A stretch of 64,000 nt of DNA, from positions 52,514,001-52,578,000 of the forward strand of contig OZ320323.1 in assembly GCA_976226885.1 (NCBI GenBank), given 5' to 3'. The stretch comes from Iphione sp. A-MEVVRFRX5. Lineage: Eukaryota. Position 1 is the stretch's first letter. Every line of letters starts with the position of its first letter. A model generated the notes under the pieces. It saw nothing but the letters and a program-made list of their open reading frames with translations, had not been told where the DNA came from and searched no databases. Positions 26,380-64,000 of the stretch are shown here, piece after piece. A program made the position numbers and the translations under genes.

Positions 26380-29300
26380 CCTTCACCATCCTACTCCAAA
26401 AGTCCTGTGGCAATAGGTGTATGGCAAAGCAGCAGGTGTGGATACACTGGAAGCTGTAGTTAGAAACCTACACACAGGCAGCTCAGACCATATACTCACT
26501 TCTCTCTGACTCACACAAGCAGTAGCATTTGACAGCCATCTGAGTGACTGAGCATCCCTCCTTAGGAATGCACTGCTCACCTCCCTAGAATGAGGAAGGG
26601 GCTAGGAAAGGTGTCCTAAAAAATTATCTGTTTCACTCAAACTGGCCAGCTTACCACAGCTAGAGAGGATCCAAGATTAGCGGTAGAAAAAACAAGAAAC
26701 CTATCAGGACTACAAACCTGGTCTTTGGGACCTGGAATGTATGTACACTAATGGACAACATCAATTCCAAGAGACCTGAGAAGCACACTGCCCTTGTTGC
26801 ATGTAAACTCTCATGATACAAGATAGACATTGCTGTCCTTTGTGAAACATGCTTTGCTGAGGAGGGCCACCTTACATAGTCTGGCACTGAGTACACCTTC
26901 TTCTGGAGTGGACAACCTAAAGAAGAAAGGAGGGAGGCTGGTGTTGGCTTTGCAGGAAAGACCTACCCTGTCACAAAGCTTACAAGCTTTCCCAAGGGTG
27001 TAAATGACCACACTATGACTCTATCTCTACCACAAAGTCAGAGCAAGCAAGCTACTATCATCAGTTGCTTTGCACCCATAGTGACAAACTCAGATGAGGT
27101 GAAAGTTTTATGATGACCTTTACAATTTTGTCAAATCTGTTCACAGATCACATAAGCTTGTCATCCTCAGGGACTTCAATGCCAGAGTAGAGGCTTACCA
27201 CACCACATAGAAAGGCATAATTGGAAAGCATGGAGTTGGGAAATGCAACAGCAATGGCTCTCTGCTACTGCAATTGTGCTCTGAATATCAACTTGTCATG
27301 ACGAATACAACTTTTACACTCCCCGTACAGAACAAAACATTATGGATGCACCCAAGATCAAAGCACTGGCATCTCATTGACTATATCACTGTTTCATAAG
27401 TAGATCAGAAAGATGTTTGTGTGTCCAAGAGCATGTATGGAACTGAGTGTTGGACAGAGCATAGACTCATTCGCTCAAAACTAAAGATGAAAATAAAACC
27501 CAAAAGATGTCCTCAAAGGTCTGTAACCTATAAAAGACTGAACATCACAAAGCTAAAGAACAAAGAAACAAAGCAAGCATTCTAAGAGGAAGTTGGTATT
27601 ACACTGAATGAACTTTAACCATCAGAAGATGTTGAGAAACATCGGACACCACTTTGCAGTGCTGTCTTTGATGCATCTTCTAAAATCCTTGGACATCCAG
27701 TCCACAAACATCAAGACTGGTTTGATGAAAATGACTCAAAGATCAACAAAAGAGGCATCTTCAAAGAACAAGCAACAACAACCCAACAGAAACAAACAAG
27801 TCAGTCTATAGACATTTCTCTAACACCATCCAGCATGAACTTAGACTTATGCAAAATCAGTGGTTATGTAATAAGGCCCAGGAGATTCAAGGATCTGCTG
27901 ATAGACAGGAAATGAAAAACTTCAGTGTTCTAAACTGACCCTCCCAGATTAACAATGAAGCTATTGAGCATCTACCTCAGGTACCAATCAATGAAGACCT
28001 TGATATGGTTTCCTCTCCAACAGAAAAAGAAAAGACTATTAAGCAGCTATCAAGCAGAAAGGCATCAGGAGGGGATGCCATACTACCTGAAGTCTATAAG
28101 CATGGAGGTCCAATACTACTGGAGAAGCCAACATCACTCTTACAAAACATCTGGGACAAGGCTAACCTACCCCAAGAGTTCAATGATGCTAACATGATTC
28201 ACCTTTATGGAAGGAAAGGGAACCATCAATCTTGTGACAACCACAGAGGCATGTCACTTCTGTCAATTACATGGAAAATTCTTACAAGAGTCATCCTCAA
28301 TCACCTTATCATGCATCTTGAACAAGGCCTCCTACTGCAAAGTCAGTGTGACTTCTGAAAGGATAGAGGTACCACATACATGATCTTTGCAGCTAGATAA
28401 CTACAGGAAAAATGTCACAAACAAAATGTTGAGCTGTTCACCACCTTCACTGACCAAAGTTCATAAGCACCTATGGAAAATCATGGCCAAGTTTAGATAT
28501 CCAGAGAAATTTATGATTGTGATGAGAGAATTCCATGATGGCATGCAAGCCCAGTTACTTGACAATTGGGAATTTTCTAAGCCATTTTCTGTCACAAATT
28601 GTGTTAAACAGGGATGTGTCCTTGGACCAAACTTATTCAGCATCATGCTCACTGCAAAGCTACATAATGCATTCAAGCCAGAAGAGCCAGAGTTTGAAGT
28701 GAGATTCAGAACTACTGGAAAGCTCTTCAACCTCACTCACTTGAGAGCCAAGACAAAAACCAACACTACCATTCTCAGAGACTTCATTTGCTGATGACTG
28801 TGCCTTGAATGCAAGAAATGAAAGAGATATGCAACACAGTATGGATCCTTTCTCTGCTGCTTACCTTAATATTGGACTTACTATCAGTACCTAGAACACA
28901 GAAGACCTTTTCCAGCCAGCTCCAGGTCAGCCATATGTCAAACCCCAAATCACTGTTGGACATGAACCACTAAAATGTATAGACAAATTCACCTACCTTG
29001 GCAGCACACTATCCCATCAAGTTAACATTGACAATGAGACAGATGCTTACACATCTATAGCAAGCTGTGCCTTTGGGTGACTATGTGCATTAGTGTGGGA
29101 ATGAAGAGATATCCTTGAAGAGATATCCTTTTGAAAATGAAACTCCAAGTATAGCAAGCAGTCGTCCTTACCACCTTACTCATTGGTGTAGTACTTGGAC
29201 AGTATACCAGAATCATACTAAGAATCTGAACCACTTTCAAGAAAACTCAGCTACCCTGGGCTAGTCATGTCCATCGAATGCCAGACATATGACTCCCCCA

Positions 29301-37400: not shown

Positions 37401-38828
37401 GAAAAACATTATGTAACATATGATAGATGATGTAAGATATTTTCTAATTTGCATTCAAAGTCTTGCCATTTACACAGATTTGGTTTGATTTCCTTCCAAT
37501 CAGCAAAAAAAATGTCGACTTACACAGAAGGATTTTCTTCTGGTCAGCACACAAAAAAAATTGCCATTTACACAGATTTCAGTAGAATTCCTTCTGATCA
37601 GCACAGAGAGAGACAAGTAAAGAGAGAGACAAAGGGAGGAGATTGTGTGTCTGTACACGTGGAAAGCACCTATTCATGCCAGTCTGGAAAATTGGCTGAT
37701 TTCCCGGACTGTTACAGAGTACGGAAAAAAAATTGTACACATGGGAAGTGAGCCTTACCCTGGGTCCCTCACTGTAAACAATTACTTAGCAAAGGGGCTG
37801 AGAAGTTGCATTACTATAGATTAATTAGACAAAATATGCACTTTACCATTAGTTATGGTATTGCTACTATTACAACTCTTGGAATGAGATTCCAAACTGC
37901 GAAGTCTTTAACGCTCATAATCATCATTTAATGAGAAAAGAATGGACGTCATATCTGCTTATAGTGCTGTACAACATTGCAGTGATATAACCTCCACTAC
38001 TAGAAGGACTAGCAAGTCTGTTAAGTTGTTAGGACCAACCCTTTGTTGTGTGAGTCAGCACTGACGTCAGTTATGCAATGCGCTGCTTGCTTGGGTCTGG
38101 ATGGGAGCAGTGTCAGAGCGGAGGTTTTTGGTTTTGCTACAGTGGGAGCATTTAACAATGTCCACATGCTGGTGAGCGATGTATGTAGGAATTAATTGCA
38201 GCCACAGGCAGCATGCACTGCAGCTCTCTTGTTTTAGAATATTAATGGGCACCAGTGTGTTATGTCCACCAAATCTCTTCTAAGTAAGACTATACACTGC
38301 ATAACAGACCATGCAACCCCTACAGTGGTATTGATGTAATATCTTTAGCATATTAAGTTATATTGTAATAAGTTACTTTAACCTCACTGCTTTGTTACAC
38401 ATAACCTGGATGTGATCCAGTAATTACTAATATTGTGTTTGCACAATATCGTTCTGACCATCACTGGATGAAAATACATTGTATATTTCCAGTATAAATA
38501 ACCCTGTCAAAAATTGTTTGCAATGCAGACGAATCCTCTCCCTCGTTTCATTCCTCCACACCTGGAGCTGTTCTTTACTACATTTCCAGATGGTATTCAG
38601 TGCTCAGCTTTTAATATGAACTCTCATTCCAGGTTGTCTGGATATATTCTACGTGAGGCCTTTAGTGCTGGTAGTGAGTGCCAACTTATGATTTTACTAT
38701 TTTTCTTTCAGGCATTGGACAGTCAGAGAACCCAGGACCGAGACAAAACAAAGTCCTGTATCGGTGTCATCAACTTCTCCATTCTGTGGTAATTCTTCAC
38801 CTCAGTGTTGCCACCAGACACAGGCACC

Positions 38829-41800
38829 ATGAACTGCCACATGGTTCTGGTGTCGTTTGTTATTGTCTACTTTATAGACAGGCGATTAAATGCCGCCAGC
38901 GGCAGTGGCGCCACCAAGAAGGACAGCACGAATGAGATGACATCTGCTCAGCTTATGCAGTACAATGACGTCACAGGACAAGTGGTACTCAACCACAAAC
39001 TACTCGAGAGTTTGTCAGCACTTGAAGGTCCACTGCATGTTGTCACAGCAATTGGCGATGCTCGCATTGGCAAGTCAACGGCTCTCAACGTCATGGCAGC
39101 TATCTTATCATCCAGTGATAAGAAGGGTCGTGTGCACACTGTACCACGTGTCTTCAGTGTCTGCCAGAGTCTTGAAACCTGCACTAAAGGCATTTGGGTA
39201 GGAAATTATTTGTAAAGGATTTCTACCTTCCCTACAAGTCAGCTTCTTAGATATTTATGGACAGATCATAAAATGATTTTGAAACTTACCAAAAAGCAGT
39301 GCTTGTTAATTCTGTGACTACATCTTAGCACGTCTGCAGTGCTATAGACAGGGTAATGTGGGCCTACTATTAGTGTATTAGTTTACAGACCACATCAGGA
39401 AATAGTCTTCCTAAAAAACTTCAATGGTAGAATTTTTTGGCATTAATGAGTCAGAAATGTCACAAAAACCACACAGATTATTATAGAGCTGATGTCTTGT
39501 AGATTCAATGGCAGCATATGGCTATATGTAGGGTTTGACTCAAACTTTTTTTGACATTAACCATCTGGGCCAATTACATTGGAATTCTCTTGACATACCA
39601 TTATTTGTTAACCATAAAGCCCAGTTTCAGTATAAGGATAACTTGACCCTAGGCCAAATCCGACTTTGTTATGCAGTTAAGTAGCTTTTTATGATGTAGA
39701 GGGTGTTATGAAATGAGGTGGATGAAACAATCCCGCACCTTCCTCCCCCATTTCTGTCACAGACCCACAGACTCACACACTGTGTCCCACTAACCACTCA
39801 TATTGGCGCAAGGTTGGATCCATAGGGAACGGCTGCTACCACATTAGCAACTTCCAAATGCCTCCAGAAAACTTGACCTTGTCCCATTGTCTAATCTTAT
39901 ATCAAAGTCTCATTGAATGCAGATGTAGACATTCTTCATATAATATATATGTACATGTATAGAACTTTACATATATACTTGGCATGTCTTTAAAGTATGT
40001 GTTCCTAATACAGTAAGAACTACGATCCCATCCACCGCAGTGTGGGCAGAGGGAGGATCCTTCCCAGAGGTACATTCTTGCTGAACACCAGCTAAATGTG
40101 CTTCAAGATAAGACCCCAGCCATGTTTCCAACCTCATCAGTTCATTTCTAAGTATGGTTCATTTCTAAGTATGGGTTTGATACGTGTAGCAGAGTACTCA
40201 TTGGCTTGAGCTCCTTCGCATGAAGGATGGTCCAGCTTTTCGGCAGTCAGTCTTATCCATGAGATATTAAACCACAGACTAGACAGGGTACTCTTCTCTG
40301 GAAGTCAAGGCTTATTGAAAGCGCAGTTTCCTGTTATAGAAAGTCTTGTTATAGAAGGTCCGTCTTGTTGCAATCATGGCCCCCTGAACAAAGTTTCCCC
40401 AACATTTCCTGACCAGGACCTTATTGGTCTATATAAATGATAAACTACCTCTCGTTTTATCAATTATCTCTTGACATCTTTCACATAACATGGGAGGGCA
40501 TAAATTCACTCTGTGTAAGAGAATTTATTCAGAAAAAAATTCAATCATGATTGTTTAAAAGATTTGGACTGTAGTAGGTAGTATCCAAATGAAATGGAAA
40601 TTTCACGTTTCGTGCTTATCCTAAAAGTGCATATAGACATTCCTTGCGAAGAAAACATATACAGAAATAACATGGTGTACACCTTTGGCTGGAACCAGTT
40701 TTCTGGGAGCCAAGGCTGTTATCTATATTGTATATTTGGATACACACCCTAAATTGGATGACATTCTCTGTGAACCAGGGGTGTCCCCAGTTCTAAGGGT
40801 CTTGTGTATAATATATGTGTATGGAGGCCTCAAAAGGAATCTCTGTTTGCAGTACCAGCCTGAAAAAAGATGGTAGGGGGATGTTTTTAGGTTTTTTTTC
40901 AAGATGCACAGTGCTTGCCGAGACTTCTAAGGACTGCATCTTTGGTTTCTACTGCTTAGATTTGAATGCAACAAAGTTCACAGAGGTAGACAATGAGCGA
41001 TAGTATGTCTTTCTAGGTAATTGATGAAGATACTCCTGTTTAAAAATAAAACATTTCAATTATGACAGAAATCAGGGTTGCTTCGGTTACTGGAAACAGA
41101 TATACGTGTTTAGTCCTCATGCAGATTTACACTCATGTACTGTGATGAGTATTTTCTCTCTTGGTTTCAGGTGTATACATTGCCATTTGGGCAAGGTGGT
41201 CACATTCTGCTCATTGATGTGGAGGGAACCGACCTTGGCGGAGACTTGGTGACAACTCAGTTCAGCCTGCTGACGTCATATCTGTCTTCGGATGTACTGC
41301 TCTTTCTCAAGGAATCAGTCCCAAAGCGGACTGCGATCTTCCTCCATGAGTTAGCGAGACTGAAGGAACGCCTCAAATCCCATAATAGTCACTCACCAGA
41401 TGCCAGTCAGATAGCTCAGATGCTTTATGTCATTATTCGTGACCCACTCAAGCCACCTGAAGACATGTCACTCAAGAGTTACGTCTCACAGGCACTAACC
41501 AACCCCAGTTATTGCCTCAATACCCCTGAAGAATGTCGTCTGCTGGGTAAGCATTTCCCACTCGCAAATGTCAATGTCTATTCTCTACCCTATGTGAGCA
41601 GGCGCCATCAAAAGTCCCTAGATTGGACCCTAAAGGACAAGAGCTACTCACGTACAATTGCTTCCATCACCTCTGACTTGAAGTCTTCCATGGAGAAGAC
41701 CAACGGGGGTCAGAGTTCACCAAGCAGCTCAACATCAGGTCAGGTGTTCTCTGGGGTGGTTCAAACATTCTTGAGGACTTTGCAGTCCCACTCAGACCTG

Positions 41801-42349
41801 GGGCTGTCTAGGGCTCCTCCTGCAGTTACCGAAGGCTCTGGCAGTAGTGCTGTATGTCAGACCGCTGACTGTACAAAGGGGCCATTCATTGATACAACAG
41901 ACATGTTAGAGCCAGAGAATGGCAGAATGGGAGAACTTCTTCCAGAAGAGAGTGGTACTACTACTGCTCATCCTCCTCCTCCTGCCGACCCAACCGTTCC
42001 AGAGGGACCCCAGTCAGTGGGTGAAATAGACATAGAGAAGATCATTACTTCACCGTTTGAAACTATGGGACCAGGTGTGTACAGCTTTGTCATGGATAAC
42101 ATCAAGCGTCTTCAGCCAAGCTCTAGTGAAGCCTCACATCGAAGTACAGGATCACTTGATGATGATGATGAAGATGAAGAGAGTGATAATGATGATGAAG
42201 AGAAATGCAGTGAGAGAGAGGGACCCAGTTGCATGCAGGGAAAACCCAAGAAGGACACGTTAACCAAATGGGGCAAAGCTGTGCGTGACTTCATTGATGA
42301 CATAGCTGATGCCCTTGATGACTTCTTCAGCAGTGTTATGTATGAATGA
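38829..42349 (+). CDS. GBP/atlastin-family (GB1/RHD3) large GTPase, 515 aa; coding exons 38829-39197 and 41171-42349
   Basis: G1 GDARIGKS, switch I TCTKGIW|, G3 DVEG and G4 IIRD are all present. Phase-0 intron (tgg|gtagga ... ttggtttcag|gtg). Kozak-like gcaccATG with an in-frame stop upstream. No stops in 515 codons. Confidence 0.88.
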
Positions 42350-46902: not shown

Positions 46903-47682
46903 CAGTAGACTCCCTCGATTCCGGACACCCTTCGTTCTGCTTCAAATCGTCCGCATTTGAGACGCGGCCGCATTGGAGACGTGGGGTACATACAGACCGG
47001 GGGTCAAACTAGAAAATGAACTCCCTTTCTCCCTCTCTCTCTACAAATGATATACACACAGAATTGGAGATCGCTACAGGGGGGTCAAACTAGAAAATGA
47101 AATCCCTTTCTCCCTCTCTCTCTATAAATTAATCCAACAAGTTAAGGTCCAAAAAGTACTGAATTTGACCAGTTAAAGTCCTAAAAGTCCTGAATTTGAC
47201 CAGTTAAAGTCCAAAAAGTACTGAATTTGACCAGTAAAAGTCCTAAAAGTCCTGAATTTGACCAGTAAAGTCCAAAAAGTACTGACTTCTGTCCACAGGG
47301 TTTATTCATGTCTACCTTTGAAAATGACTCCTGGAGCCTCTCTAGGGCCCCAAATTCGCGCGACAACACCTCGTCCACAGGGGTTATTCATATCTACCTT
47401 TGAAAAATGACTTCTTAGGCCTCCCTGGAGCCCCAAATTTGCGCGACAACACCTCGTCCACAGGGCTTACTCATATCTACCTTTGAAAAATGACTTCTTA
47501 GGCCTCCCTGGAGCCTCTCTAGGGCCCCGTCCGCAGGGAGGCGCCCCCCGATTTTTAGCGTCCGCATTGGAGACGTCAGCTCATAATGGTTAACTATGGG
47601 AACGCAGTTCGTTCTTCGTCAAATCGTCCGGAATTGAGACGCGTCCGCATTGGAGACGCGTCCGCGGGGAGGGAGTCCCCTG
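46903..47682. mobile_element. Tc1/mariner (pogo/Tigger-like) non-autonomous element with internal tandem arrays
   Basis: ta|cagtagactccctc ... gagggagtcccctg|ta (TIR 12/14 match, TA TSD). Internal arrays: 2 x ~80 bp, ~6 x ~21 bp (aaagtcctgaatttgaccagt) and ~3 x ~85 bp. Confidence 0.8.
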
Positions 47683-48809: not shown

Positions 48810-49828
48810 TATTACCAAACATCCCCCGTTTCTGCTGAATTCCTGGGAATATTCGGATAAGGCAAGCATGAATGTACCAGCAATTGATACATGGGTCTCC
48901 AGAAAAATCGTGATTGTCATTACATATGATAAAAGTACACCTTAGCGTATGTTAATTCTTTAAAATCAATGTCAGAGAATAGAATAGAACCTTTTTGGTG
49001 AAACTGAGGCATATCAGTGGAAATTTTGGGTCTTTTTATGTAAAGGAATGCAAGTTTGGTAACAAATCTTAAAGAAATAACATATTAAATACCTTTTTGC
49101 AGCCTGCACGAGGTGGTGGGGTCAGGGTAGACCGGATCATCTCCAATCAGGTAGCCCAGACCCAGGGGTGGGTTCGGGTGGTCCACATACATAGGGACAG
49201 CCCTATTGAAATACCCTAGATCAGTCCTCCCATGGTCAACACCACCAGGGGCAGGTCAGGACAACCCACACACATGGGGATAGTGCCTAAGGTTTGAATG
49301 CATTTGAATTCAGTGGTGCAATAGAAGAAATATAGGAATGCAACTGTATTGCTGTGCTTGTTATTAATATATTCATATTGAAGTGTCCCTTCCACATTGT
49401 TAGATGTATTGTGATGTTGACGTCCACTATGTTGCTTTGGAGCTCTTAAAGGTAAAGGTACAATAAACTACCTCCTCCACAATGGCCTTCCTGTCCTGAT
49501 TACACATAACATGGTGTCAGAAGAAACCAGCAATATCTCCGGTATCGGGTCCCATCCTCCCTCCTATTAAGGCAAGAAGGAAAAGGAGATCCCAGAAATG
49601 ATAAGCAGGTAGGAGAGAAGTCACTCCTGTGCCAATTGTTGCCATTAGAGCCTGTAAAAAGGGGATGGATGTACCATCCTTTGTTCTGGCCATGTGCTCC
49701 TGTCTTTTGCAGTGAATTTTATCATTGTGTATGCCTTCCCCTGTGTCTAAATAACTCTGAGTTCACCACATTGTGAACATACTGTGCCAACATGAGCATT
49801 TACTATGCTTCAGTTTTAGCCCAGCATT

Positions 49829-52017
49829 TCATAATTGATCGAACACCATCTGCAGGTGGCAGAGGTGAGTGGCTTGGTCTGGCGACCATGCCAAAATGTC
49901 GTTGATGTACGCAGTGGTAAACATGCCATTAATCCTGTCTAGTATGGTCTTTGGCTGGGAGGCCTCATCCATCGGGACCTGATGATAACCGCTACAAAGA
50001 TCAAGGGTAGAAAAACAGGTGCTACCTCCCAGCTTGGCTAAAATGTCATCAATGCGAGGCAGTGGCCAATTGAACTTGACAGTGACATCATTGACGTGGC
50101 GATAATCAACACAGAATCGCATGGTTCCATCCTTTTTCTCTACCAATACTATTGGCGATGCCCACGGACTGCGACTCGTGTGGATTATTCCAGCATCCAA
50201 CATACCCTGAATCTTTTCCTCCACAACGGACTGGACAACAGAGTGTGATATGGTTTTGGAGCAATGGGTTTGTGGTCTCCGGTGACAATTTCTATCATGA
50301 CGAGGTGTGTACAACCCAACTCCTTGTCAGAGCTGCAAACAGATCCTCATTATTGGCAAGCAACTCCTCCAAGGAGGATACCGCCATTTTTAGGTGACGT
50401 GGACTAGGGGGTGAGTCACTTCCAAGAAGTCCTAACTCAACACAGGTCTCGTCCACTACTGGCTCGATTTCGGCAATAACGTTCCCCGCTCTCAGCATCA
50501 CGGTACACGTGGTGGTATTCACTATAAGTACTGGTACCTTTTCTGATTTCACCTTCGTTAAGCAATTCATCACCATGACTCCAGGTTCCTCGATTAAAAA
50601 CTCTGCCTGGAACCCTTCACTATAATAGTGGTGTGCATGTTTTCCTCTGGAGCCTCCTTTTTCCGTCTCTTGCCATATGCTACAACAGCTATATTCGGGG
50701 GTAGCACGGTGTCTGCTTCAGTGCGCACAATGGCATCAATCTGCTGCTCCCCAATCATGGGAACCAACAGTGACCCACATCGCACCATGCCCTCCTCAGG
50801 CAACAGCTGCATGGGATGCTGGCTTAACCAGTCCCATCCAAGGATGAACATAGGTCGGGGACGACTCATAATACGCAACTCCATGGAAAACCTCTTTCCC
50901 AATACTGAAAATTCAATAATTGTAATACCTGACTGCTGCAATTCTCCACCATCCACCCCCCATATTGCGGTGGGTGATGGACCCACCTTGGTAGCAAAGC
51001 TTCTTCTCTCCAGACTCCGATAAATATCTTCCCTTACTACTGATATGTCTGCCCCCGTATCTAGCAGAGTGCAGAAGCCATATGGGCCTACCTTAATCTT
51101 GATCATCGGCCTATTCGTCATCCTGTAAAAATTCGTCGGTTTTTCTAACTGGTCGGACTCTTATTCGGGCACTGGGACTGGTAGTGACCGAATTTTTTAC
51201 AACTGTAACATTGGATCTTCTTGATCACCTTCTGCAGTGGCTGTTGGGGAGCACCCTCTTTTTGCCCCCTCAACTTTGTCTTGGCCACGTAGCAGTTCTT
51301 TGCTACGTGCCCCTGTTTACCGCAGCAGTGGCAATTGCCCTGAAACCACTTACGTCCGCTGTCAATGGCATCCACTTCCATAGGCGTATGTTCATCCCTT
51401 CCCCTCAATGAGATGTGGAGGAGAACTTCCGTCTCACCTCCTGCACACACCACTGCAGCTACGAAATCCTCTGGACCCTCCCGGATAATCTTCCTAGCTA
51501 CCTTAGGGTTCTTTACTCCATCGGTGAAGAATTCTACCAACTGTTGCTGCACAGCTGCCTGTCACATTTCTTGAACCGAGAAAGCATCTCGAGCCAAATC
51601 GAGTAACCTCTCTGAATACACATAAATAGTCTCGTTAGATTTTTGCTTGTACTTCCGTAGAAGTCCCTTCACATGCACTGGGTCTATCACCTCCCCAAAT
51701 CTGTGGGACAATTGTTCCTTGAACCTATCCCACTCAACCGTCCTCAGCACAGGCTCAATCAGTTGAGGATCATTTCCCCATAACCGGTTGTCCTGTTCTT
51801 CAATGAGCGGATAATATAATCCGCTACTGGACCCTCAGCCGTTAGTTGGGCCAAGCGCTGCTTAAAACGCACGGCTCCGTCAGGCTGTACAACATACCCA
51901 ATGGTAGTGTGTTCGATAGCCTTCATCCATGGTTTAAAGCTTTTAGGTTTTCCGTCGAAACTTGGGACTGACTGTTTAGCTCTCTGTATGCTCAGATTCT
52001 TGGTTACCTTGGCCAAG
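49829..52017 (-). mobile_element. Older Gypsy copy: 3' part of gag, protease and partial RT, truncated and frameshifted
   Basis: ORFs 51145-51552 (PMEVD, two CCHC knuckles), 50594-51121 (LLDTGAD) and 49829-50314 (WASPIVLV, STLDLCSGYHQ, YIND). These are paralogous to 59456-62447. About 30 codons of RT (AF...FNVMPFGL) are deleted. Confidence 0.92.
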
Positions 52018-52845
52018 TGTAGCACTAAAGCAACACCACGAGTCAGGTTCGATGTCAGCCTTTTATTCTTCAGCTTCGTAGCACAGTTACAATCGTCATC
52101 AGCAGCAACCCGGGCGAGTCCGACTAACTCTTCAGACCGCCAACCTTATATACCGGACGAGCCGGATACGGTCTTCCATCAAATGTCAAACACATCTTGT
52201 TCAGACAAAGCGTCATTAAAGTTTTACCCTCTGACGTCAATAGCACCTTGTATCCAGGGTAGCAGCAAAGCATTACCTTACACGCTATCTTGTTGTTGCA
52301 CCCGGACACCGTGTGAACAATCGTTACTTTAACGACAAGGCTCTGGTTACTGATAAGCAAAGAATTGTGAAGCGGGCGAAAGACAGACTACATCCTGTGT
52401 AGTGCAAGCGAAAATTTTCTCAGTAAACATTAACATACTTCGCACAAGGCTTTACTTGTAATTCATCTATCTATACTTTAAGATTGAAGACTCCCTGGGG
52501 GACTTATTTGGGTGGAGTGTCCTTGTAAGTGGGAGTCCTCAGATCTTGCCCGGGATCGATGATGTGGGAGCTCCTGGTTTCCTTCTCTCAGTCGTTTATG
52601 TATATTCAAAGTCTCTGCACTATATCTCTATAACCTTGTATATGTAGATGGAGTTTTTATAGGAGTAGTATACAGAGTCTGTGTCCTTTTATATTTTGCA
52701 TATATAAATATATATAGTTTGCTCTGGTAGATGTAAATATTCAAACTAGTCTTGATATATTCTTAAAAGGACTTCTGTTTGTGCCAATAAAGTATATGAA
52801 ATATAAATGACTGAGGTGGAACAACTGAATAAAGGTATATGTAGT

Positions 52846-52851
52846 TTTATT
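52846..52851 (-). terminator. LTR polyadenylation signal
   Basis: AATAAA on the minus strand about 330 nt downstream of the TATA box, followed by AT-rich sequence. Confidence 0.55.
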
Positions 52852-53194
52852 GGAAACAACACCAGAGGGATGATTGTCTCCGCCTGACAGCGGCTAAGTG
52901 TTGAATAAAGGCAAGAATTGCCCTAACAGTGTGATATGGCAGAATACCAAATAAAATGAGTGGCACAATATAAATGGAGGGAGAGGAGTCAGACCAGAAA
53001 GTTCTGTGCAGAATGAGTTCCCTTACAGTTTCTGTGAATGTCCAAAGGCAGTGACAGTAAAGTGTAGTACAGCAAGGCCTACAAAACAATACGTTCAATA
53101 TGGCCAATCCTGATATAGACACTGCTTTGGTATATGTAGATCTGCACTGGTCTGCTCCCTCCTCCAGAATGTCTTCCCTGTGGCTGGGAGCTGG

Positions 53195-53228
53195 CTGCTT
53201 ATATAGGCAGCTGCCTTCTGATTGGCCC
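53195..53228 (-). promoter_or_regulatory. LTR promoter: CCAAT box and TATA box
   Basis: The minus strand reads ggCCAATc at ~53221-53226 and ccTATATAAgc at ~53198-53204, spaced as in a retroviral U3. Confidence 0.7.
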
Positions 53229-53237
53229 AAACCCAGT

Positions 53238-53405
53238 CCATACATTTCCTATATAGGGTGAGGGTCACCCTGACCCTCTGTAGCCAAAACCTTAGTCCAT
53301 ACATTTCCTATATGAGGGTGAGGGTCACCCTGACCCTCCATGACCAAAGCCTTACTCCCTACATTTCCTATATGAGGGTGAGGGTCACCCTAACCCTCCA
53401 TGACC
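53238..53405. promoter_or_regulatory. U3 enhancer: 3 x 59-60-bp repeats, each with a GGTCAnnnTGACC (IR3) palindrome
   Basis: GGTCAcccTGACC at 53263-53275 and 53323-53335, and GGTCAcccTAACC at 53383-53395, directly upstream of the CCAAT/TATA boxes. Confidence 0.65.
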
Positions 53406-53853
53406 AAATTCATTCTATAATTATTTCAACTTCTCAAATACACATAACTACATACTTTTAAATTTGTTGATATGAATTTTGTCCACAGTATAGATATTAC
53501 TGAGTTGATAGAAATTTTATCCAAAGTTTGTGAGCCTTACATATGTCTATATAGAGAGGTAGGATCACCCAATCTAACCTATCCCAATACTTCAAATACA
53601 TTCTTTATACAATCAAACTTGTAGTCAAATGCTATTTCAATACTTAGAATACATACCACTACACATGTATGGATCTATGGTTAGGAAACACATACATTGT
53701 TTTAATATTTGAGGGATTTGATAACTTAACAATACACTGTACAGACATTGTACTTTATTTCACAATATACATTCTGCAGAATACAATGTAACTCCCTTTT
53801 ACTTATCCACTCATTAAGGATCACACAAGACGTTCTATAGAAACTGTGTTACA

Positions 53854-53865
53854 TCCCTCCCCTCC
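53854..53865 (-). other. Polypurine tract (PPT)
   Basis: Minus strand GGAGGGGAGGGA abuts TGTAACAC. Confidence 0.85.
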
Positions 53866-55014
53866 TTTGGAAACAATGCGCAGCATTGTTGAGCCGCTTG
53901 TCTGGGCTTCCCAAACAAAATCCATACGTGCATCCCAATACGAGGGTTCTTATCACACTGAAAAGATATTCAGTATGACAAGTTCAACAGGAATATGCTA
54001 ATACCTTCACATCACTACTAGTACTACCAACCACCACTTTCAAGGTACCGTCGCATATAGAAAACCCGTTCCTGGCACATTGAAATATATAACTGTGGTT
54101 AACGACTCTGAGGACAAGATAATCCTCCAATCAATCAGGGGGAATTAGACCAGAGTGATCAGGCAAACGCGGAAATTTGCCTCTCCTTCACAAAGGATTT
54201 AGCACCTTTGTGGACAAGTGCCTGTATTCTCATCCCGCTTCCCGTTACAAGCGTTATTTTACAGCATCCCCTTAGGATCAGCTTTCTTACGAACTTACTC
54301 GGCCATCAACAGCTCTCCAGTGGAATCTGGAACTGGGGGACTCGGGTGGTCCTATTACTACAGCTTTATGGCTACACTTGCCAGGGCCGCCAGTTCGCTC
54401 AACCTCAAGGGACGACCTTTAAACCAGGGAGAATGGTCTCTCTGGATGGCCTTGACTCTACCTTCTAGGTTAACGAGCACACACCAGACTTCCTGGTTCC
54501 TTAAGAAGAAAATTTGTCTTTTTTGTAATTTCCCTTTTTTTTGTTTGAACAAGGGAAAGAAATAGAAGAAGAAAAAGAAAGATCCATGACAAATTTCATG
54601 AGGTGCTCTTCCAAGCAAAAGAGAGATTTGCCCGTGGAGGGTCACCTCACGGCCCGAAGGCTACCATGAGGACACTTCCTTGAACGAACATTTACAACCG
54701 AAGATTCCTCATGGACACCATTCGTGCCGGAGTCTGAACCAGTTATGGTGGGTCGCGAACCGCAGATAGACACTCACTCTTCCAGCTGATCACAAATACT
54801 ATTTACATTTTATTGAGGTACCTGTAGCTGAACTTGATGGATTACACACATTGAACAATCAACATATAACAGTATGCATACATTATTGGTACCATTCCAA
54901 TTCCTGCAGGTTGTACATCAATTACACAGCACATATGTATATGCATTTCCTATCACAGTGTGAGCAAGAGTTCCTATCTTTTCTGCCAAGACTGCGATCG
55001 ATAGTATTCCTCCC

Positions 55015-57206
55015 TTACCGGAACACAGAAAAAGGGTGCTCAGCAGGAGCATACAGCTCAGTGGGGACTTTTGAGTTAGTAGGGCGATATATCTCAAATT
55101 CTTTGGGACCTTGTTTAAACTTCATCGCACATTCGGGCACAATGCGCGCGGGCTCAGGGGCACTGGGCAGAGGCAGGGCCCGAAGGGAGAGAGTCTCCCC
55201 GGCACTAGCCACTGATGGGTCAGGGGAATGAGTTCCATTTCCCAGATTGATGGTAATTGGGGAGGACCCTTGGGATCCCACGCCTTCGTTGGATCTACGG
55301 CTATTCGTGGACCGACTGGGCATAAACCTCCTCCAGCGTCCCTTGCTACACAAGCAACAGTAGCAACATCTGCACACCGTGAGGGCCGAACTCAGCCCTC
55401 CAATAACCCACATTATGGTTGACAAAGGAGAAGTACCTGGCATCAACGGGTTACGAGCAACCTTATCATGGAGTGTATTAATTCTTTGTACTATTCCCTC
55501 AATATCAGTCTCAGAGAAATCCGGTAACGGTTGCAATGGTCCGGTCCGATTTGGAGCCGGAGGGAGCTCCGCTGACCAGACCAACAATTCAGTCACCAAC
55601 AACTTAGCTGGAAGTTCAATAGGGTCTCGTTCAACTTCGTATTCATTACGCTGATAATAATATGTGGGCAGAGACATCTCATCCCTGACAGTTCCACATC
55701 CGTTGGAAAGTTTCACTAAGGCAAAGGGAGCTGGAACGTTATGACGGTATGTGCTGCCGTTAACACACTGTATTCTCATGCCCAACATAACCGGAGTGGT
55801 CACCACCCAATTACCTTGATCTAGGTACTTGGCTTGGGGCATGGTTAGCCCACTCATGATGGTACGCGTACAGAGGGAGGACACCCATTTGACCTCTTGC
55901 CGGTAGATAGCGAGAACGCAATATGAATGCAGATTGAGTTCATACACAGGAGATGACACCAAGCAGGAGTCTTCCTGTAGTCGACAGTGAACAAGTTCCT
56001 CTGGCGTGACAATGGCATAACGACGTCGGTCGCTGGTTATGCCAAAATACTTGAACTCAAAGTCAAATTGAATGGCACGTCCGTCAGCCATCGGGATGGG
56101 AATGTTCACTGCTTCATAGATAGTGTACGAAGCTACTGGGTCTGTCAATGGTATAGTGATGGAGGTTATGATGCGTCCCTCGAAAATAACCGTGGTGGCC
56201 GACAGAGCACTACAGTAGCTCCACATGTCAGTCACCTGATAGGGCAAATGCAGTTGAGATGGCAATTGATGTTCAATAGTCATGAGGATACCCCTGAGTT
56301 CATTAGCTGGGAGGACCTCGGGAGTCAACCGTCCGCCTAAAAGATGGTTGATACGGGCCTCTAACTTGGACACCGAAGTTTCCCACGCATCCAACCGGTA
56401 CTCGTATCGCAAGTAAAACCGCTCGGCGTTGAGGATGTCATGAATATGGCGTATTTCCCGAGTAGTGATATTGCTCATGACATGTACAGCCTCCCACAAG
56501 TCAATTTCTACCTCTTTCAGAGTTTTTAACACGTCATTGATGTGTTGGCAGTTCTGGCGGGCGTCCACACGTGTCTGATTCATCACCGTCATCATATCCC
56601 TCATAATCATCAGGGTCTCCAACTGTTGCGATTCCAGTTGGTACATACGTTGCTTAATAATGTGTATTTCATTTCCCACTACACCAAACCCAGCGGCCGT
56701 CCCTGCCACCATCACCACACCGCCTAGGGCTGCGAGGGCTACGGCGGGACTGCACCGTGGCCTGGTACCATTATACCGTCCGAAGATATCCACTCGTTCC
56801 ATACGTCCTTCCTGGAAGCGTCGCATTCGTTCTTCCGTAAGCAACTTAGCGATATTGTCCAGCTGGGCTATTCCCTGTTTTATTTGTGCCTGCAAAATCT
56901 TGGCACGATCCAATTGGGATCTCATAATTATTCTCGCAACAGGTTCCGCTCAGGGTCGATTGCCGTAAATTTGCCAAGGGGGAATGAGGCTATAGGTTGT
57001 CTTCAACAATCCATATCGTGTGTGATTAAGTTCGCCCGCCAAGTCATTCCCTACTTGTTTATAGCGATCGTACTCGGAAACCAAGTCCAGTCACCAGGAG
57101 GATAGGACAGACCTTACGTCTAGACGTTTCTTGAAAATAACATTCTCAAGCGTCCCTCCGACGACAGGTTGGATGACGATCAATCCCCATAGGACCCACA
57201 CGCAAC
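55015..57206 (-). pseudogene. env: env: class I (F-like) fusion glycoprotein, expressed from a splice acceptor at 57206; two in-frame TGA stops
   Basis: Acceptor cttttctctgttgtag| lies just after the pol stop. It is followed by a signal-like CVWVLWGLIVIQPVVG in frame (93 codons) with the 636-aa ORF 55015-56925. TGA codons at 57091-57093 and 56950-56952. RPRC is followed by hydrophobic SPAVALAALGGVVMVAGTAAGFG, a heptad region, a Cys-rich core, N-glycan sequons, and TM IMWVIGGLSSALTVC plus a Cys cluster. Confidence 0.88.
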
Positions 57207-57225
57207 CTACAACAGAGAAAAGGCG

Positions 57226-60200
57226 TTAGTTAGTCTCAGGCACACTCTTCTCTGCGACTACGAGATCTCGCAAAATCGATGTTACTGTTTGCAAAGTCTT
57301 AAGAGCTTTCGTTAAATGCTCAGCTGGGTTATCATTAATTAACTCCACTTGTTTAGTTTTCTTAGAAATCGATTGCTCACCTGGTTCAGTATGTTCTCTC
57401 TTATACCAGGGACCACGCGTCCAAAACTGGCGCGGGCGTTTATACATCGGTGGCAATTCAGTAGGCAAGGTCTGTTCTCTTTTTACTGCAGCTCGGGTGC
57501 GATAACGGTGGGGTGCCGGTTGGTCCCCCCTCCCCTCTGTCAGGTGACCGTCGGTCTCAGGTGCCCGTGGCGGGGTCGGATCCCGACCTCCCACGGCACC
57601 TCCATCCCCATTTTCCGTGTTCTCAGGGGGAGTTCTCGGCAGGTTGACCGGAGCGATGGCCTGCTCCCCGGCCTCGTGTTGCCGTTCTGCACGGGCGGGC
57701 TGCTGGTCGCGCAACACATCTAACCCTTCACCATGATCCTTGGCTGCTGGGTCGGGTCTATTTTCCTCAGGTCCGTGCACCTGATCCGGTGGATCAATGT
57801 TTTCCGCAACAGGGCCCTCCACCCCGACCCGTCCCTCTTCCGGTTGAAGATCAGGGTCGTTCTGCAGATCACGAAGTTCGTGCTGCTGTTCTCTTCCGTA
57901 CAATTGGGCCAAGGGGATATCATCCGCGGAAGAGAACCCATCGGAGCCATCCAATGGTGATGACGAACTACCGCCCGAATCAGTAGACGTCTCATCTCCG
58001 GCTAAAGCAACACGCCGGCACAGTCGCCCATCACTTGCCCTAGGCATCCTCCAGTCCAGGTTTGCCATTCGCAAGTGATCACTGTGAACCTTTGCAAGCT
58101 TCCCCATCACCTGATCCTTCACAATGAAGTTGACTGGAGTAAGCTTTTCTACGATACGGCCATAAGGCTGCCACCTCACATCTACCTTGTGGCGCTTTAA
58201 GGGGTTCTGTACATATACAGGATCCCCGACTTCGAATGACACCTCCGTAGCCCGTTGGTCATGATACTTTTTCATGCGCTGTCGCGCCGTGGCGACATTC
58301 CGGCGGACTATGGTCATGGCCTGATGATGTCGCTGCAAGGCCAGTTTATGATGCTCTTCCCCGTAGTACCTTACTCAGGTTGGAGCAAGGTGTCCAATGG
58401 CAATATTGGATCTCTTGCCTGAAGGAGATAGAAAGGGGTATACTTGGTTGACTCATTAGTACTCATTCGCAGAGCCAACAAAGCAGAGGGTATTACCTTT
58501 TCCCAACATGCCATATCTCTCTGAGTTAACTTTGCTACAACGTCATTCCATACCCGGTGCATTCGCTCAACCTTACCATTACCAGCTGGGTGATATGGAC
58601 TGGTGGTGATGCGAGCTACAACGAGCTTCCGACAAATCTCCTTTATAACTTCATTCACGAATTCAGTCCTGTTGTCGGATAACGGATAACTACGGGACAT
58701 CCGTGCCTTGGTATGACTTCCTCAAGGAAGATTGTCGCGACTGTCTGAGCCTGCTTATTTTTCATGGGGAACATTTCAGGCCATCCTGAATAGACGTCGA
58801 TTAAGGTCAGGAGATACACGTACCCGGCTTTGGATTCCCGGTACGGTCCACAGGTAACGACTGCTAATTTTTGAAACGGAAACGTAATACTTTCTATTTC
58901 TTGAAGTGGCCTTAATTGCCTCTTCAAATTCAGTGTGTTACACAACACACATGCCCGAATGTGAGCGACGACATCTCGAAATAAATTCTTCCAGTAGTAC
59001 AGTGCGCGTACGCAGTCGTACGTTTTATCAATCCCCATATGCACCATTTGATCATGTTACTGATCCAGCACTGCACTACGGTACGCTTTTGGCACTACTA
59101 GCCGCAAGCAAGCTTCTCGGAGTCTCTGACACTCCAGATCGGTGGTTTGCGCTGCCTCTATGCCTTCCAGATAATCATGTTCCTGAGTTTGTAGTACTCT
59201 TGCTTCCTCCGAGTCGGTGCTGGAAGCATTATTGTCCGTACTCTGTACATGCGGTTCGGCTGCGGAATCCTCAAGGGGCCCTGATCCCGCATCCGAATCG
59301 GTCTGGTCGAGCGGAGCCAGTTCTTCTCCGGAATTGGAGCTTCCTACCTACGGATCCTCTCGACCTGACCAAAGCCTACTTAAAGCATCGGCGGGAACAT
59401 TATCCCTACCAGGGATGTATTGAATTTCACAGTCATACTCAGAAAGCTGCATGGCCTAACGCTGGACCTTAGCATTCTTCTGCTCTGATTTGAACAAGAA
59501 TTTCAAGGGTTTATGGTCCATACGGACAATGAATTTATGTCCGTACAGAAAAGCGCGGAACTTCCGGATTGCAGAGACAATAGCAAACCCTTCCTTTTCA
59601 ATAACGGGCCACCTCTGTTGAGTTTCACTTAGGTGGTGCGACATATACTGGATCGGTCTTTCTCCGTCGTCGAACTCCTGAATGAGCACAGCTCCGATGC
59701 ACGCATCACTCGCATCGGTATACAAGATGAACTCCCGGTCAAACACCAGAAAGGCCAAAAGTGGAGGATTGATAAGCTTCTCCTTCAACGTGTCGAAGGC
59801 GATCTGACACTCAGGAGTCCACTTAAACTCTGGATGCTTTCGGGTCATGGCAATCAATGGTTCGGCAATCTGGGTGAATGCTGGCACATATCTTCCGTAG
59901 AAACTAGCCATCCCTATAAAGGATCGGACACCCTTTACGTCGACTGGAGGTTCCAGGTCAGAGATGCTAGCTACTTTTCCATCATCAGGCCGTACTCCAT
60001 CAGGCGTGATGATATGCCCCAGATATTGCAAGCAAGGACAGAAGAAGTCACACTTGCTTCGTTTCAACTTCAGCCCTGCACTTCTTAATCGATCGAACAC
60101 CATTTGCAGATGGCAAAGGTGAGTAGCATGGTCCGGCAACCATACTAAGATATCATCGATATAAGCTGTGGTGAACGTGCCATTGATTCCGTCCAGAACC

Positions 60201-61471
60201 TTAGCCATAAGTTCGCAAAAAACACTAGGTGCATTACACAACCCAAACGGCATGACATTAAATTCGAATAACCCTGCGTGACAAGCAAATGCAGTCTTAG
60301 GTCTGGAGTCTTCGTCCATTGGGACTTGATGATAACCGCTACGAAGATCTAAAGTAGAAAAACAGGTACTGCCTCCCAACTTAGCCAAGATATCATCGAT
60401 TCGAGGCAATGGCCAATTGAATTTGACAGTAACATCATTGACGCGGCGATAATCGACACAGAATCGCATCATGCCATTTTTCTTCTCCACCAGCACAATC
60501 GGTGAAGCCCCCGGGCTGCGACTAGTGCGGATAATGCCAGCGTCCATCATACCCTGTATTTTCTCCTCTACCACAGTTTGTCAGGACAGTGGTGTATGAT
60601 AAGGCTTCTGAGCAATGGGCTCGTGATCTCCCGTATCGATCTCCATGGTAACCAGATGGCTGCAACCCAACTCCATATCCGAGGCTGCAAACAAATCCTC
60701 GTTATTCACCAGCAGCTCCTCTAACGTAGAGACTGCTATATTTAACTGGCAAGGAGTCGGCGTTGAGTTCGTACCAATCAGTCCCAACTTGTGGCAAGTT
60801 TCGTCTCAGACGGGTTCAACTTCCACGATCACGTTCCCTGCTATCAGCATAAGGGTGCGCGTAGTTGTGTTGACAATTAATACTGGAATTTTGTCGGAGC
60901 ACACAGTCGTAAGAGAGTTGGCGACTATGACTCCAGGTTCCTCAATTAGGTAACTCTGTTTGGAACCCTTCACTATCATAGCCTGGGTGTCCCCTACCGG
61001 AGTATCCTTCCGTCTCCGTTTTCCACATGCTATAACTGCCGTATTCGGGGGCAGGACGGTATCGGATTCCACCCGCACGATTGCCTCAACCTGTTGTTCG
61101 GCAATCATGGGAACCAACAAGGACCTGCAACGTACCATCCCCTCCTCTGGCAGCAACTGCATTGGGTGCTGGCTTAACCAGTCCCAACCTAGGATAAACG
61201 TGTGTCGAGGACGACTCATGACTCGGAACTCCACAGAGAAACTAATTCCCTGGACTGAGAATTCGATATAAGTCACACCCGATTGCTGTAATTCTCCACC
61301 ATCCACTCCTCGTATAGTGGTGGGTGGCGTGTCCAGCACTGTAGCCAGCCTTCGCTTTTCCAGACTCTTATAGATATCCTCCCTCACAACAGACACGTCT
61401 GCCCCAGTATCTAGCAGAGCGCGGAAGCCATAAGGGCCTACTTTAATTTTAATAGTCGGCCTATCAGTCAT
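57226..61471 (-). pseudogene. pol: pol (PR-RT-RH-IN, Ty3/Gypsy order) with nonsense and frameshift lesions
   Basis: LLDTGAD (protease). RT with FSTLDLRSGYHQ, FNVMPFGLCNAP and YIDD. RH with LYTDAS, EKEGFAI and DHKPL. IN with HMGIDKT...C..C, LIDVYSGW, DNRTEF, YHPAGNGKVERMH and WQPY. In-frame stops at 60806, 60581 and 59456, plus frameshifts in the integrase. Confidence 0.95.
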
Positions 61472-61493
61472 CTTGTATCAGGTGTCGGTCTTC

Positions 61494-62447
61494 CTAATTT
61501 GTTAAATTTTTATTCGGGCACTGGGACTGGTAGTGTCCGAACTTTTTGCATCCATAACATTGAACCTTCTTAACCACCTTTGACAACGGTTGCTGGGGAA
61601 CACCTTCCTTCTGTCCCCTTAACTTGGCCTTCGCGGCGTAGCAATTCTTTGCCACGTGACCCTGCTTGCCACAGCAGTGACAATTGCCCTGAAACCATTT
61701 TTTCCCGATATCAATGGCATCTACTTCCATGGGGGTATGTTCATCTCTCCCTCTTAATGATATATGGCGGAGGACTTCCGTCTCACCTCCTGCACAGGCG
61801 ACAGCGGCCACAAAATCTTCAGGTCCCTCCTGTATTATTTTCCTAGCCACCTTGGGGTTCTTCACCCCGTCTGTGAAGAATTCAACTAACTGTTGTTGCA
61901 CCTCTGCTTGGCGCATTTCTTCATCCGAAAAGGCATCTCAGGCTAGATCAAGTAACCTTTCAGAGTATATGTATATGGTCTCGTCGGATTTTTGTTTACA
62001 TTTTCGCAAGAACCCCTTCGCATGGACAGGGTCTATTACTTCCCCAAATTTGCGGGAGAGTTGCTCCTTAAACCTGCCCCACTCAACCTGGGTCAAGACT
62101 GGTTCAAGCACTTGAGGATCACCTCCTTGAAGTCTATTATCTTGCTCTTCAACATAACGGATGATATAATCAGCCACCGGCCCTTCTGCTGTTAGCTGGG
62201 TTAGCTGTTGCTTAAATCGCATGGCTCCTTCAGGCCGCACCACGTACCCAATGGTAGCGTGTTCGATTGCTTTCATCCATGGCTTGACTCCCTTTGGCTT
62301 TCCATCAAAACTGGGAACTGATTGTTTAGCTCCCTGTATACTCAAATTTTCTGTCACCTTAGCTAAGTGCTGATCTATTCCTTGAAAGCATTGCTGGAGA
62401 TTAGGACCTCCTCCCTCCGCTCCCTGGGGCGCCTCGGGCACCTCCAT
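61494..62447 (-). pseudogene. gag: gag with two CCHC zinc knuckles; one premature stop
   Basis: ORFs 61938-62447 and 61494-61916 are in one frame. TGA at 61938-61940 aligns with CGA (Arg) in the older copy. PMEVD, CHCCGKQGHVAKNC and CYGCKKFGHYQSQC motifs. Confidence 0.92.
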
Positions 62448-62466
62448 AGGCCCACTTACCCAACTT

Positions 62467-62643
62467 CTAGGGAAGGGCGTGGGGTTCCCCGTCTCCCACT
62501 AACACGAGTCCTGGGGCCCCACAACCCAGAGTTAGTTTACATGCCAAATATCCTATTGCTCCCATTAGCATGGCCACAATTAGGAGCATTACAACAATAT
62601 ACCCCACCGAACGGGAATCAAATTCCAAAGTGGTCAAATCCAT
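62467..62643 (-). CDS. 58-aa leader ORF with one predicted transmembrane helix (missed by the 60-aa ORF track)
   Basis: MDLTTLEFDSRSVGYIVVMLLIVAMLMGAIGYLACKLTLGCGAPGLVLVGDGEPHALP*, followed by a GTAAGT donor at 62454-62459. Confidence 0.5.
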   Translation of the reverse strand: MDLTTLEFDSRSVGYIVVMLLIVAMLMGAIGYLACKLTLGCGAPGLVLVGDGEPHALP

Positions 62644-62778
62644 CCCTATTTTGGACCCTTAAACCCTACCCACTAGGTTCATTGGTCTTGGCAGAACATC
62701 CCAGAAACTCTCGCTCACCTTTCAATTTCATGGCTGCACAGTCCATTATTCTGGGTTTTCTGTTGTTAGTTCTGTCTC

Positions 62779-63355
62779 TTAGCCAGTTACGGGTGACTCA
62801 AGCGGCAACAGTGCTCGCGGCGGTGACGACTGGCTCCTCCCTCTCCTGACTCCAACACACCACACCAGGTACGCCTCACGACGGGTGATCGCTCCCCTCT
62901 GGACCGCTTGTAGGAGCTGCTGCATCTGCTCGTCGTTGTCTGCTGCCCCTCTCGCCTCGCGATGTCTCACGATGGCATGCCGTAGGTCCTCAGGACCCAG
63001 CTCGTTCAGTGGACTCGTCATCCTACCCGGTTGGGCAGGGGATAGCTGATTGCAGTCCACTTCCTCGACCGGCGCCTCTAACCGGCCCCACTGAGGGTCG
63101 GGGGACTCTCGCCTAATGCTCTCTGGTGCAACTGGTTTTGTCTGTGACAACGTCCGCCTTCCAGGCTTCACTGGTTCCATCAGCGACAGCCCCGTCAGCG
63201 ACAGGTTCAAAGGCTGTTCTCCCTACGTGAGTCGCACGCCTCTCGGAAGTTTGCGTTCGGTAACCTGTCGTGGTAGTTGATGTTCCCGGCGTACTGTTAG
63301 CGAGTACGCGGGGCGTCCTAACACTCTGGTGATGTACCTCGGTTGATTCCGTCAT
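62779..63355 (-). CDS. Leader ORF(s) of unknown function upstream of gag (80 aa + 143 aa overlapping, possibly one frameshifted ORF)
   Basis: ORFs 63113-63355 (ATG preceded by acceptor-like ttctcacattttcgag) and 62779-63210, which contains helical-looking EDLRHAIVRHREARGAADNDEQMQQLLQAVQRGAITRREAY. Confidence 0.4.
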
Positions 63356-63530
63356 CCTCGAAAATGTGAGAACAGCGGGCTTCGTCCTTGGACAAAGTAT
63401 GATGAGTACACCACGTGTCAGTTAGCTGCTTCCACTACCTCACTGACGAATGGTTGTCTCGGCGGCGAAGATGCCCACATGGGTGCTTTGGCATCACTTT
63501 GTTGATACGTCTGGCGAAGCTCAGCGGCTG

Positions 63531-63548
63531 ATCCTGGTCACGGCACCA
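63531..63548 (-). other. Primer-binding site, tRNA-His-like
   Basis: Minus strand TGGTGCCGTGACCAGGAT. The plus strand ATCCTGGTCACGGCACCA matches my recollection of the 3' end (with CCA) of invertebrate tRNA-His(GUG). It lies 11 nt from the LTR end. Confidence 0.75.
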
Positions 63549-63559
63549 AAAGAGATGGG

Positions 63560-64000
63560 TGTAGCACTAAAGCAACACCACGAGTCAGGTTCAATGTCAG
63601 CTTTTTATTCTTCAGCTTCGTAGCACAGGTACAATCATCAGCAGCAGCAACCCGGGCGAGTCCAACTAACTTTTTGGACCGGCAACCTTATATACCGGAC
63701 GAGCTGGATACGGTTGTCCGTCAAATGTCAAACACATCTTGTTCAGACAAAGCGTCATTAAAGTTTTACTCTCTGACGTCAATAGCACCTCGTATCCAGG
63801 GTAGCAGCAAAGCATTACCTTACACGCTATCTTGTTGTTGCGCCCGGACACCGTGTGAACAATCGTTACTTTAATGACAAGGCTCTGGTTACTGATAAGC
63901 GAAGAATTGCGAAGCGGGCGAAAAACAGACTACATCCTGTGTAGTGCAAGTGAAAATTTTCTCAGTAAACATTAACATACTTCGCACAAGGCTTTACTTG
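63560..64000 (-). mobile_element. 5' LTR (U5 part; runs off the window)
   Basis: Gapless match to 52018-52458 with about 22 substitutions in 441 nt by hand count. Confidence 0.92.

Follow-up and report, generated by a model that had tools for sequence, protein, structure and literature searches.

A decayed F-type env-carrying Ty3/gypsy element in Iphione sp. with a predicted spliced env and a small membrane-protein reading frame ahead of gag

The window analysed here, 64,000 nucleotides (nt) of contig OZ320323.1 from Iphione sp. A-MEVVRFRX5, carries a Ty3/gypsy element with long terminal repeats (LTRs) on the minus strand of positions 52018-64000, as identified by its Pfam domain order, LTRs, primer-binding site (PBS) and polypurine tract (PPT). 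Along this strand Pfam detects, in order, a zinc knuckle, protease (PR), reverse transcriptase (RT), RNase H (RH), integrase (IN) and a Baculo_F envelope domain. The order PR-RT-RNase H-IN, together with two LTRs, PBS and PPT, places the element in the Ty3/gypsy group (Metaviridae), and the F-type env downstream of pol is that of an F-type errantivirus. The genes are not intact, with one stop in gag, at least five in pol, two in env and additional frame breaks in pol. In total, eight stops were counted in 2463 codons, and the two LTRs are 95% identical over 440 nt, with 22 mismatches in a gapless alignment. The element is a decayed env-carrying Ty3/gypsy element, broadly speaking an errantivirus, whose long leader bears accessory open reading frames (ORFs; Table 1). 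All readings of the leader, the splice sites and the small ORF with a transmembrane (TM) segment, hereafter the TM ORF, are based on this one decayed copy. The gag start agrees with the position at which the matching Gag proteins of relatives begin. The PBS, which we take to be of the tRNA-His type, is near-identical in the related locus L092 and similar in L017.

Table 1 Features of the element and its leader. Positions are those of the window; aa, amino acids.
Feature	Position	Strand	Remarks
5' LTR, 3' end	63560..64000	-	extends beyond window; ends CA; matches 3' LTR
Primer-binding site	63531..63548	-	TGG-initial 18-mer, 11 nt past LTR end
ORF0, broken candidate accessory ORF	62779..63494	-	147-codon stop-free part 63222-62782; weak
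Short coding exon end with donor A	62719..62731	-	Met-Lys-Leu-Lys plus one base; proposed first coding part of env
TM ORF	62467..62643	-	58 aa, single span, CCC-TAG end; ATG 62643, TAG at 62469-62467
Donor B (donor of the original prediction)	62454..62462	-	just before gag ATG
gag	61494..62447	-	zf-CCHC (Pfam); tblastn to P0283; premature stop at 61940
pol (PR-RT-RNase H-IN)	57226..61477	-	Pfam, tblastn; at least 5 stops, 2 frame breaks
env splice acceptor	57207..57235	-	branch-point-like motif, pyrimidine tract, TAG
F-type env exon	55015..57206	-	signal hydrophobic core at start; C-terminal membrane span
Polypurine tract	53854..53868	-	purine run, then TG
3' LTR, ~1.84 kb	52018..53853	-	start inferred from PPT and TG only

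The env gene was recognised by a Pfam match to Baculo_F (E 6.6e-08, 32 bits against a cut-off of 24.1), and a profile search with the Env protein retrieved the solved 'fusion protein' structures 9w4d and 9w4c at 1.8e-19 and 6.3e-18, respectively. The closest Env found, P0271, is 34% identical; at the position aligned to its furin site, basic residues are present, while the canonical R-x-x-R is absent in this copy. An earlier reading of this DNA (the original prediction) had proposed that a subgenomic splice joins the TM ORF to env in the correct phase, using a strong acceptor just after the pol stop and a perfect donor just ahead of gag. The acceptor is borne out. Its first exon base, 57206, lies 20 nt past the pol stop (57228-57226) in phase 1; the tract contains pyrimidines at 13 of 15 positions and ranks second among the 287 YAG sites of the element, and a branch-point-like motif is located ~24 nt upstream. 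Between the pol stop and the mature-Env anchor (57225-57140) there is no in-frame ATG, and the hydrophobic core of the Env signal begins directly with the first codon of the exon, so that an n-region has to be supplied from upstream. Very probably, expression of env relies on a subgenomic RNA spliced at the acceptor at 57206. Env and pol share one frame, with a single stop between them (57228-57204). An acceptor is found at the same place in the related loci L017/L022, L018, L005/L006 and L004. Another locus, L014, has an acceptor after pol and no env match, which suggests that env was lost there and the splice sites were kept.

Two donors in the leader would fit this acceptor. Both were scored with a base-frequency matrix against all 620 GT sites. 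Donor B (TGG/GTAAGT at 62460/62459) is separated by 13 nt from the gag ATG at 62447, counted from the last exon base, as the original prediction had placed it. The description as perfect holds for its intron side; overall it ranks fifth with 5.3 bits, below donor A (AAG/GTGAGC at 62719/62718), which ranks second with 6.4 bits. Counted from the ATG at 62643, donor B is reached after 184 nt and is therefore in phase 1, like the acceptor. The phase match of the original prediction is thus correct, although on its own it is a 1-in-3 event. Donor A is likewise in phase 1. It has open upstream ATGs at 62731 and 62746, and the path from 62731 is stop-free and starts from an ATG in good context; all nine upstream phase-1 ATGs of donor B run into a stop. 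In 2000 shuffles, a donor as strong as donor A with an open phase-1 ATG was obtained in 5.3%, and in 1.9% if the exon had to be short with a purine at -3. The segment 62731-62719 is, by its sequence, a short ATG-led exon upstream of gag and in phase with env, the configuration of the Drosophila elements ZAM and Beagle.

The two donors lead to very different Env N-termini. Via the donor-A exon the mature-Env anchor is at residue 26, whereas it is at residue 83 in a fusion through donor B. Among the 111 alignable of 151 Env homologues (the 40 without an anchor were left out), the anchor is at residue 35 or earlier in 97, at 36-60 in 12 and beyond 60 in two; the median by the motif method is 24. 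One of the two long cases, P0262, is a limpet gene model that fuses gag to an F-type env, with a Met of its own 22 residues ahead of the anchor. In the other, the Env P0245, two hydrophobic stretches precede the mature start. The homologues have short signal peptides, with starts as called by gene callers on unspliced DNA.

The 58-aa TM ORF and its TAG are present as the original prediction described them. Its best 19-residue window (residues 16-34) has a hydropathy of 2.65, the flanking charges of -2 and +1 favour an N-out/C-in orientation and its ATG is in good context. Dinucleotide shuffling of the 1083-nt leader, repeated 2000 times, never produced such an ORF. The TM ORF is a real, non-random feature of this leader. 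The alternative that it is non-functional leader sequence is in line with its lack of homologues and its absence from all 34 leaders compared; with no match among 2000 shuffles and a well-placed ATG on the other side, we regard it as very improbable.

Taken together, we favour an ordinary spliced Env and a separate 58-aa membrane ORF, to which we assign about an even chance on sequence grounds. Donor A (62719/62718) would be spliced to the acceptor at 57206 to form the env mRNA. The four-codon exon would supply the Met and two lysines as n-region, the env exon would add the hydrophobic core and the product would carry an ordinary cleaved signal peptide in the ZAM/Beagle arrangement. For the specific claim that the donor-A exon provides the Env start, we likewise consider the chances balanced, a figure of judgement rather than of computation. 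It needs no lesion and has a precedent in ZAM and Beagle. The TM ORF would then lie in the env intron, end at a genuine stop and encode a separate protein, probably N-out/C-in, translated from unspliced or donor-B-spliced RNA. Donor B would be a retained ancestral donor of the clade. The likeliest role of the small protein would be to help capsids reach or remodel the membrane, by analogy with the position of sORF2 in MDG1 elements, and this is the weakest step of the proposal. The fallback of the original prediction, in which the TM peptide is a separate accessory product, is accordingly the reading that we prefer.

Several observations weigh against this preferred reading. Donor A was recognised post hoc, and the positional conservation among relatives belongs to donor B. 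For this comparison, 92 related loci were assembled (the best 80 of 426 from a metagenome scan, nine from a genome scan and three distant ones from a viral-contig pol alignment), of which 34 had an RT match, an ORF of gag size and 150 nt or more of upstream sequence. A GTRAGT within 60 nt of the gag ATG is present in all six loci with an RT identity of at least 51% and in none of the 28 others. In these six (L004, L006, L014, L017, L019 and L092) it sits 14-53 nt ahead of gag, against a background of at most 0.08 per 60 nt in the gag-pol bodies of related loci. A quick maximum-likelihood (ML) tree of 48 RT rows places the window inside a 24-row clade (SH-aLRT 96), and the same clade holds all five donor-bearing loci that were placed in the tree. 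By this recurrence of the motif, donor B is a real feature of the clade. In addition, the env start is visible in four independent relatives (L017/L022, L018, L005/L006 and L004). In each of them env has its own ATG 2-23 nt after the acceptor, with a distance of only 2 nt in L004, and in P0271 a Met precedes the anchor by 22 residues. Since these relatives and P0271 carry their own env Met, an env start on a peptide exon would be derived here. As the homologue starts derive from unspliced gene calls, they show that relatives need no leader, and spliced leaders would stay invisible in them. For the TM ORF, no homologue was detected: there was no Pfam match and no usable ESM Atlas match, and an equivalent upstream ORF is absent from the 34 related leaders, many of which are short or cut. 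It also remained unmatched in the loci of the metagenome and genome scans.

The conserved donor, together with an acceptor just before env's own ATG in the relatives, indicates that ancestrally the leader exon was probably non-coding and env was translated from a start within its own exon. This copy could still use that mode. A donor-B exon without Env-coding content would be joined to 57206, the local Env start would have been lost in this copy, the TM ORF would be a separate gene and donor A incidental. This is the arrangement of all four relatives examined, donor B is kept in all six close loci and the stop load and LTR differences given above attest to the decay of the copy. Against this, a lesion at a three-base target would have to coincide with a donor-A exon arising by chance (1.9-5.3%), and a core at the first codon of the exon leaves scant room for an n-region. 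We consider this alternative unlikely, though more likely than the fused leader.

The fusion envisaged by the original prediction differs in that the TAG at 62469-62467 is taken as a post-insertion lesion, giving an Env with a 61-residue leader and a span of its own ahead of the signal core. Such a fusion uses the conserved donor B, its phase matches, two codons separate the end of the TM ORF from the donor and, at the decay rate of this copy, a stop is expected in any 61 codons at ~18%. Its topology would be feasible, with an N-out span as suggested by the charges, a cytoplasmic loop and an internal signal. On the other hand, the anchor is preceded by more than 60 residues in only two of the 111 homologues, the intact donor-A exon is left as a coincidence, the lesion has to fall just past the span and the phase agreement would be met by one join in three. 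Nor would the predicted join be open: past the acceptor, the env frame meets two additional stops, at 57093 and 56952. With the anchor at residue 83 and an intact donor-A exon at hand, we judge the fused leader improbable. Of the claim of subgenomic env splicing, the use of the acceptor thus stands as very probable and the donor recurs in the clade, while the choice of that donor is challenged by the stronger donor A. The 7 nt that separate the TAG from donor B were considered as an env micro-exon and rejected, as they put env out of frame.

Betaretroviral Env proteins have long signal peptides. The leader of foamy virus Env, which the original prediction also had in mind, is 120-130 aa long and of type II, with ~60 cytoplasmic residues followed by one span (PMC7828637). 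The topology of the hypothetical fusion does not match it: its span begins at residue 16 (16-34), a second hydrophobic core follows and an in-frame stop intervenes, so that only the idea of a long, membrane-spanning leader is common to both.

The stop of the TM ORF shows two features that may indicate a used site. Its context resembles an acceptor, with pyrimidines at 12 of 15 positions of which only two are T, and donor A could therefore splice the TM ORF out of the gag RNA. In addition, a CCC precedes the TAG, and gag lies in the +1 frame, which is open from 62498 to the gag ATG. The two features are not independent because both stem from C-rich codons. A +1 shift at CCC-UAG would extend the TM ORF into gag, so that a minor share of the Gag would be tethered to the membrane, its capsid part placed in the cytoplasm by the charge pattern; this would be compatible with a donor-A-spliced env. 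The chance of the arrangement is 0.4% for CCC and 2.8% for any of eight antizyme-type codons. It was spotted post hoc, as one of several patterns tried at the site, no structure is apparent downstream (z -0.85, 0.33 and 0.11 for three segments), no Gag of the examined loci has a TM extension and a single-base indel lesion would look alike. A canonical -1 slippery heptamer was not seen by eye near the TM stop. To our knowledge, it is poorly understood how enveloped gypsy capsids reach the membrane without a matrix domain. If true, tethered Gag would connect the capsid of an enveloped Ty3/gypsy element to the membrane in a matrix-like way.

A +1 shift at such a site has precedents. In fungal antizymes, ribosomes naturally shift +1 where CCC is followed by a stop. 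In COS-7 cells the combination CCC-UGA is efficient with a 5' element and no 3' stimulator, UAG being nearly equal to UGA (PMC1874602). The Iphione site shares the CCC ahead of the stop and the next ORF in the +1 frame. It differs in its UAG stop, in the lack of a detected stimulator and in a downstream ORF with its own ATG, and the cell-culture precedent carried the antizyme 5' element. Overall, an F-enveloped gypsy element that tethers a minority of Gag by this shift is, on the sequence at hand, an outside chance, rated a little below the fused Env leader.

Further upstream, ORF0 is a weaker candidate: 95 of 2000 shuffles reach its 147 open codons. The open stretch contains a PLNLS motif, which we presume to resemble a CtBP-binding site, and a likely helical C-terminal part. 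It has no Pfam match, its homologue search was blank, all ESM Atlas scores were below 0.85 and a single match, at E 0.30, was its best among the loci of the metagenome and genome scans. A reading of ORF0 and the TM ORF as one gene was discarded; they share a frame, but five stops fall within ~46 codons between them. At the other end of the element, the ~1.1 kb between env and the PPT (53870-55015, minus strand) include a 100-codon open stretch at 54660-54358 without an ATG or Pfam match, in which a basic patch comes after a Phe-rich run. This is possibly another broken accessory ORF.

A decayed gag-protease-RT relative with 71-81% nucleotide identity in blocks adjoins the end of the 3' LTR (49790-52017, minus strand). 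Either the element inserted into a copy of an older sister family or the relic arose by recombination. As it begins within gag, it is no test of the leader. Rfam gave no match in 52000-64000, and a tRNA gene search found none. Among the searches for relatives, a word-index search with env returned nothing, scans of viral contigs with the RT and with P0271 were empty and a full HMMER search yielded 1001 relatives, the best at 42% over 225 aa, so that no sister family was reached. Five of the related loci (L084, L085, L086, L088 and L092) come from contigs assigned to bacterial metagenome-assembled genomes; these gypsy pol sequences are probably host DNA in the bins. Elsewhere in the window, the plus strand holds fragments of a host guanylate-binding protein family at 38793-42349 (Pfam GBP, E 3.1e-05 on 38793-39212) and a reverse-transcriptase relic, probably non-LTR, at 27939-28794. 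Tandem arrays with units of 38, 84 and 31 nt are located at 6748-7317, 25122-25632 and 47137-47291, respectively.

The main result is ordinary, since F-type env gypsy elements have already been described across animals (PMC13524379) and short upstream env exons from flies (PMC12992720). Less ordinary is the presence of a small membrane ORF before gag together with env, unlike the situation in drosophilids, where sORF2 was not seen alongside ENV (PMC13486581). Should this pairing be real, it would suggest that such proteins can serve as helpers in assembly or in targeting to the membrane instead of taking the place of Env. In the titles and opening parts of abstracts from a limited literature search, a pairing of a small TM ORF with env was not described outside insects. 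The recurrence of the donor across a non-insect clade predicts the env mRNA structure for its elements, and a description of their splicing was not found in the parts of the literature examined.

F-type env gypsy elements, termed 'ancient errantiviruses', are widespread in invertebrates (PMC13524379). The Iphione element shares with them the LTR-gag-pol-env layout, the PR-RT-RH-IN order and a Baculo_F env with a signal and a C-terminal span; it differs in that this copy is not intact and has a 1.1-kb leader with accessory ORFs. In the main text of that paper the terms 'splic' and 'upstream of gag' do not occur, and its table of 1512 elements may hold this family. ZAM and Beagle, insect endogenous retroviruses of Drosophila, have a short peptide exon ahead of gag from which env is spliced (PMC12992720). 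The junction proposed here is predicted and implies no kinship with them, and in the Iphione element the stretch from the exon to gag also contains a membrane ORF and a second donor.

The closest parallel to the leader itself is found in the MDG1 group, which has two accessory ORFs upstream of gag, sORF1 and sORF2, the second encoding a small single-span membrane protein (PMC11952523). ORF0 and the TM ORF mirror this layout, including a sense-strand single-span ORF before gag. The hallmarks of sORF2 are missing from the TM ORF: its second residue is Asp, so that there is no MG N-myristoylation motif, and with one Lys past residue 34 it has no polybasic patch. Its N-terminal side comprises ~15 residues compared with a ~30-residue ectodomain, and its length of 58 aa compares with the 63-107 aa given in the ranges of PMC11952523. 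We therefore do not file it as sORF2/FAST. MDG1 elements are env-less, and in drosophilids sORF2 and ENV were reported not to co-occur (PMC13486581), whereas the element described here carries env. By analogy of position, the TM ORF may nevertheless act as an sORF2-like membrane helper in an element that has its own envelope gene.

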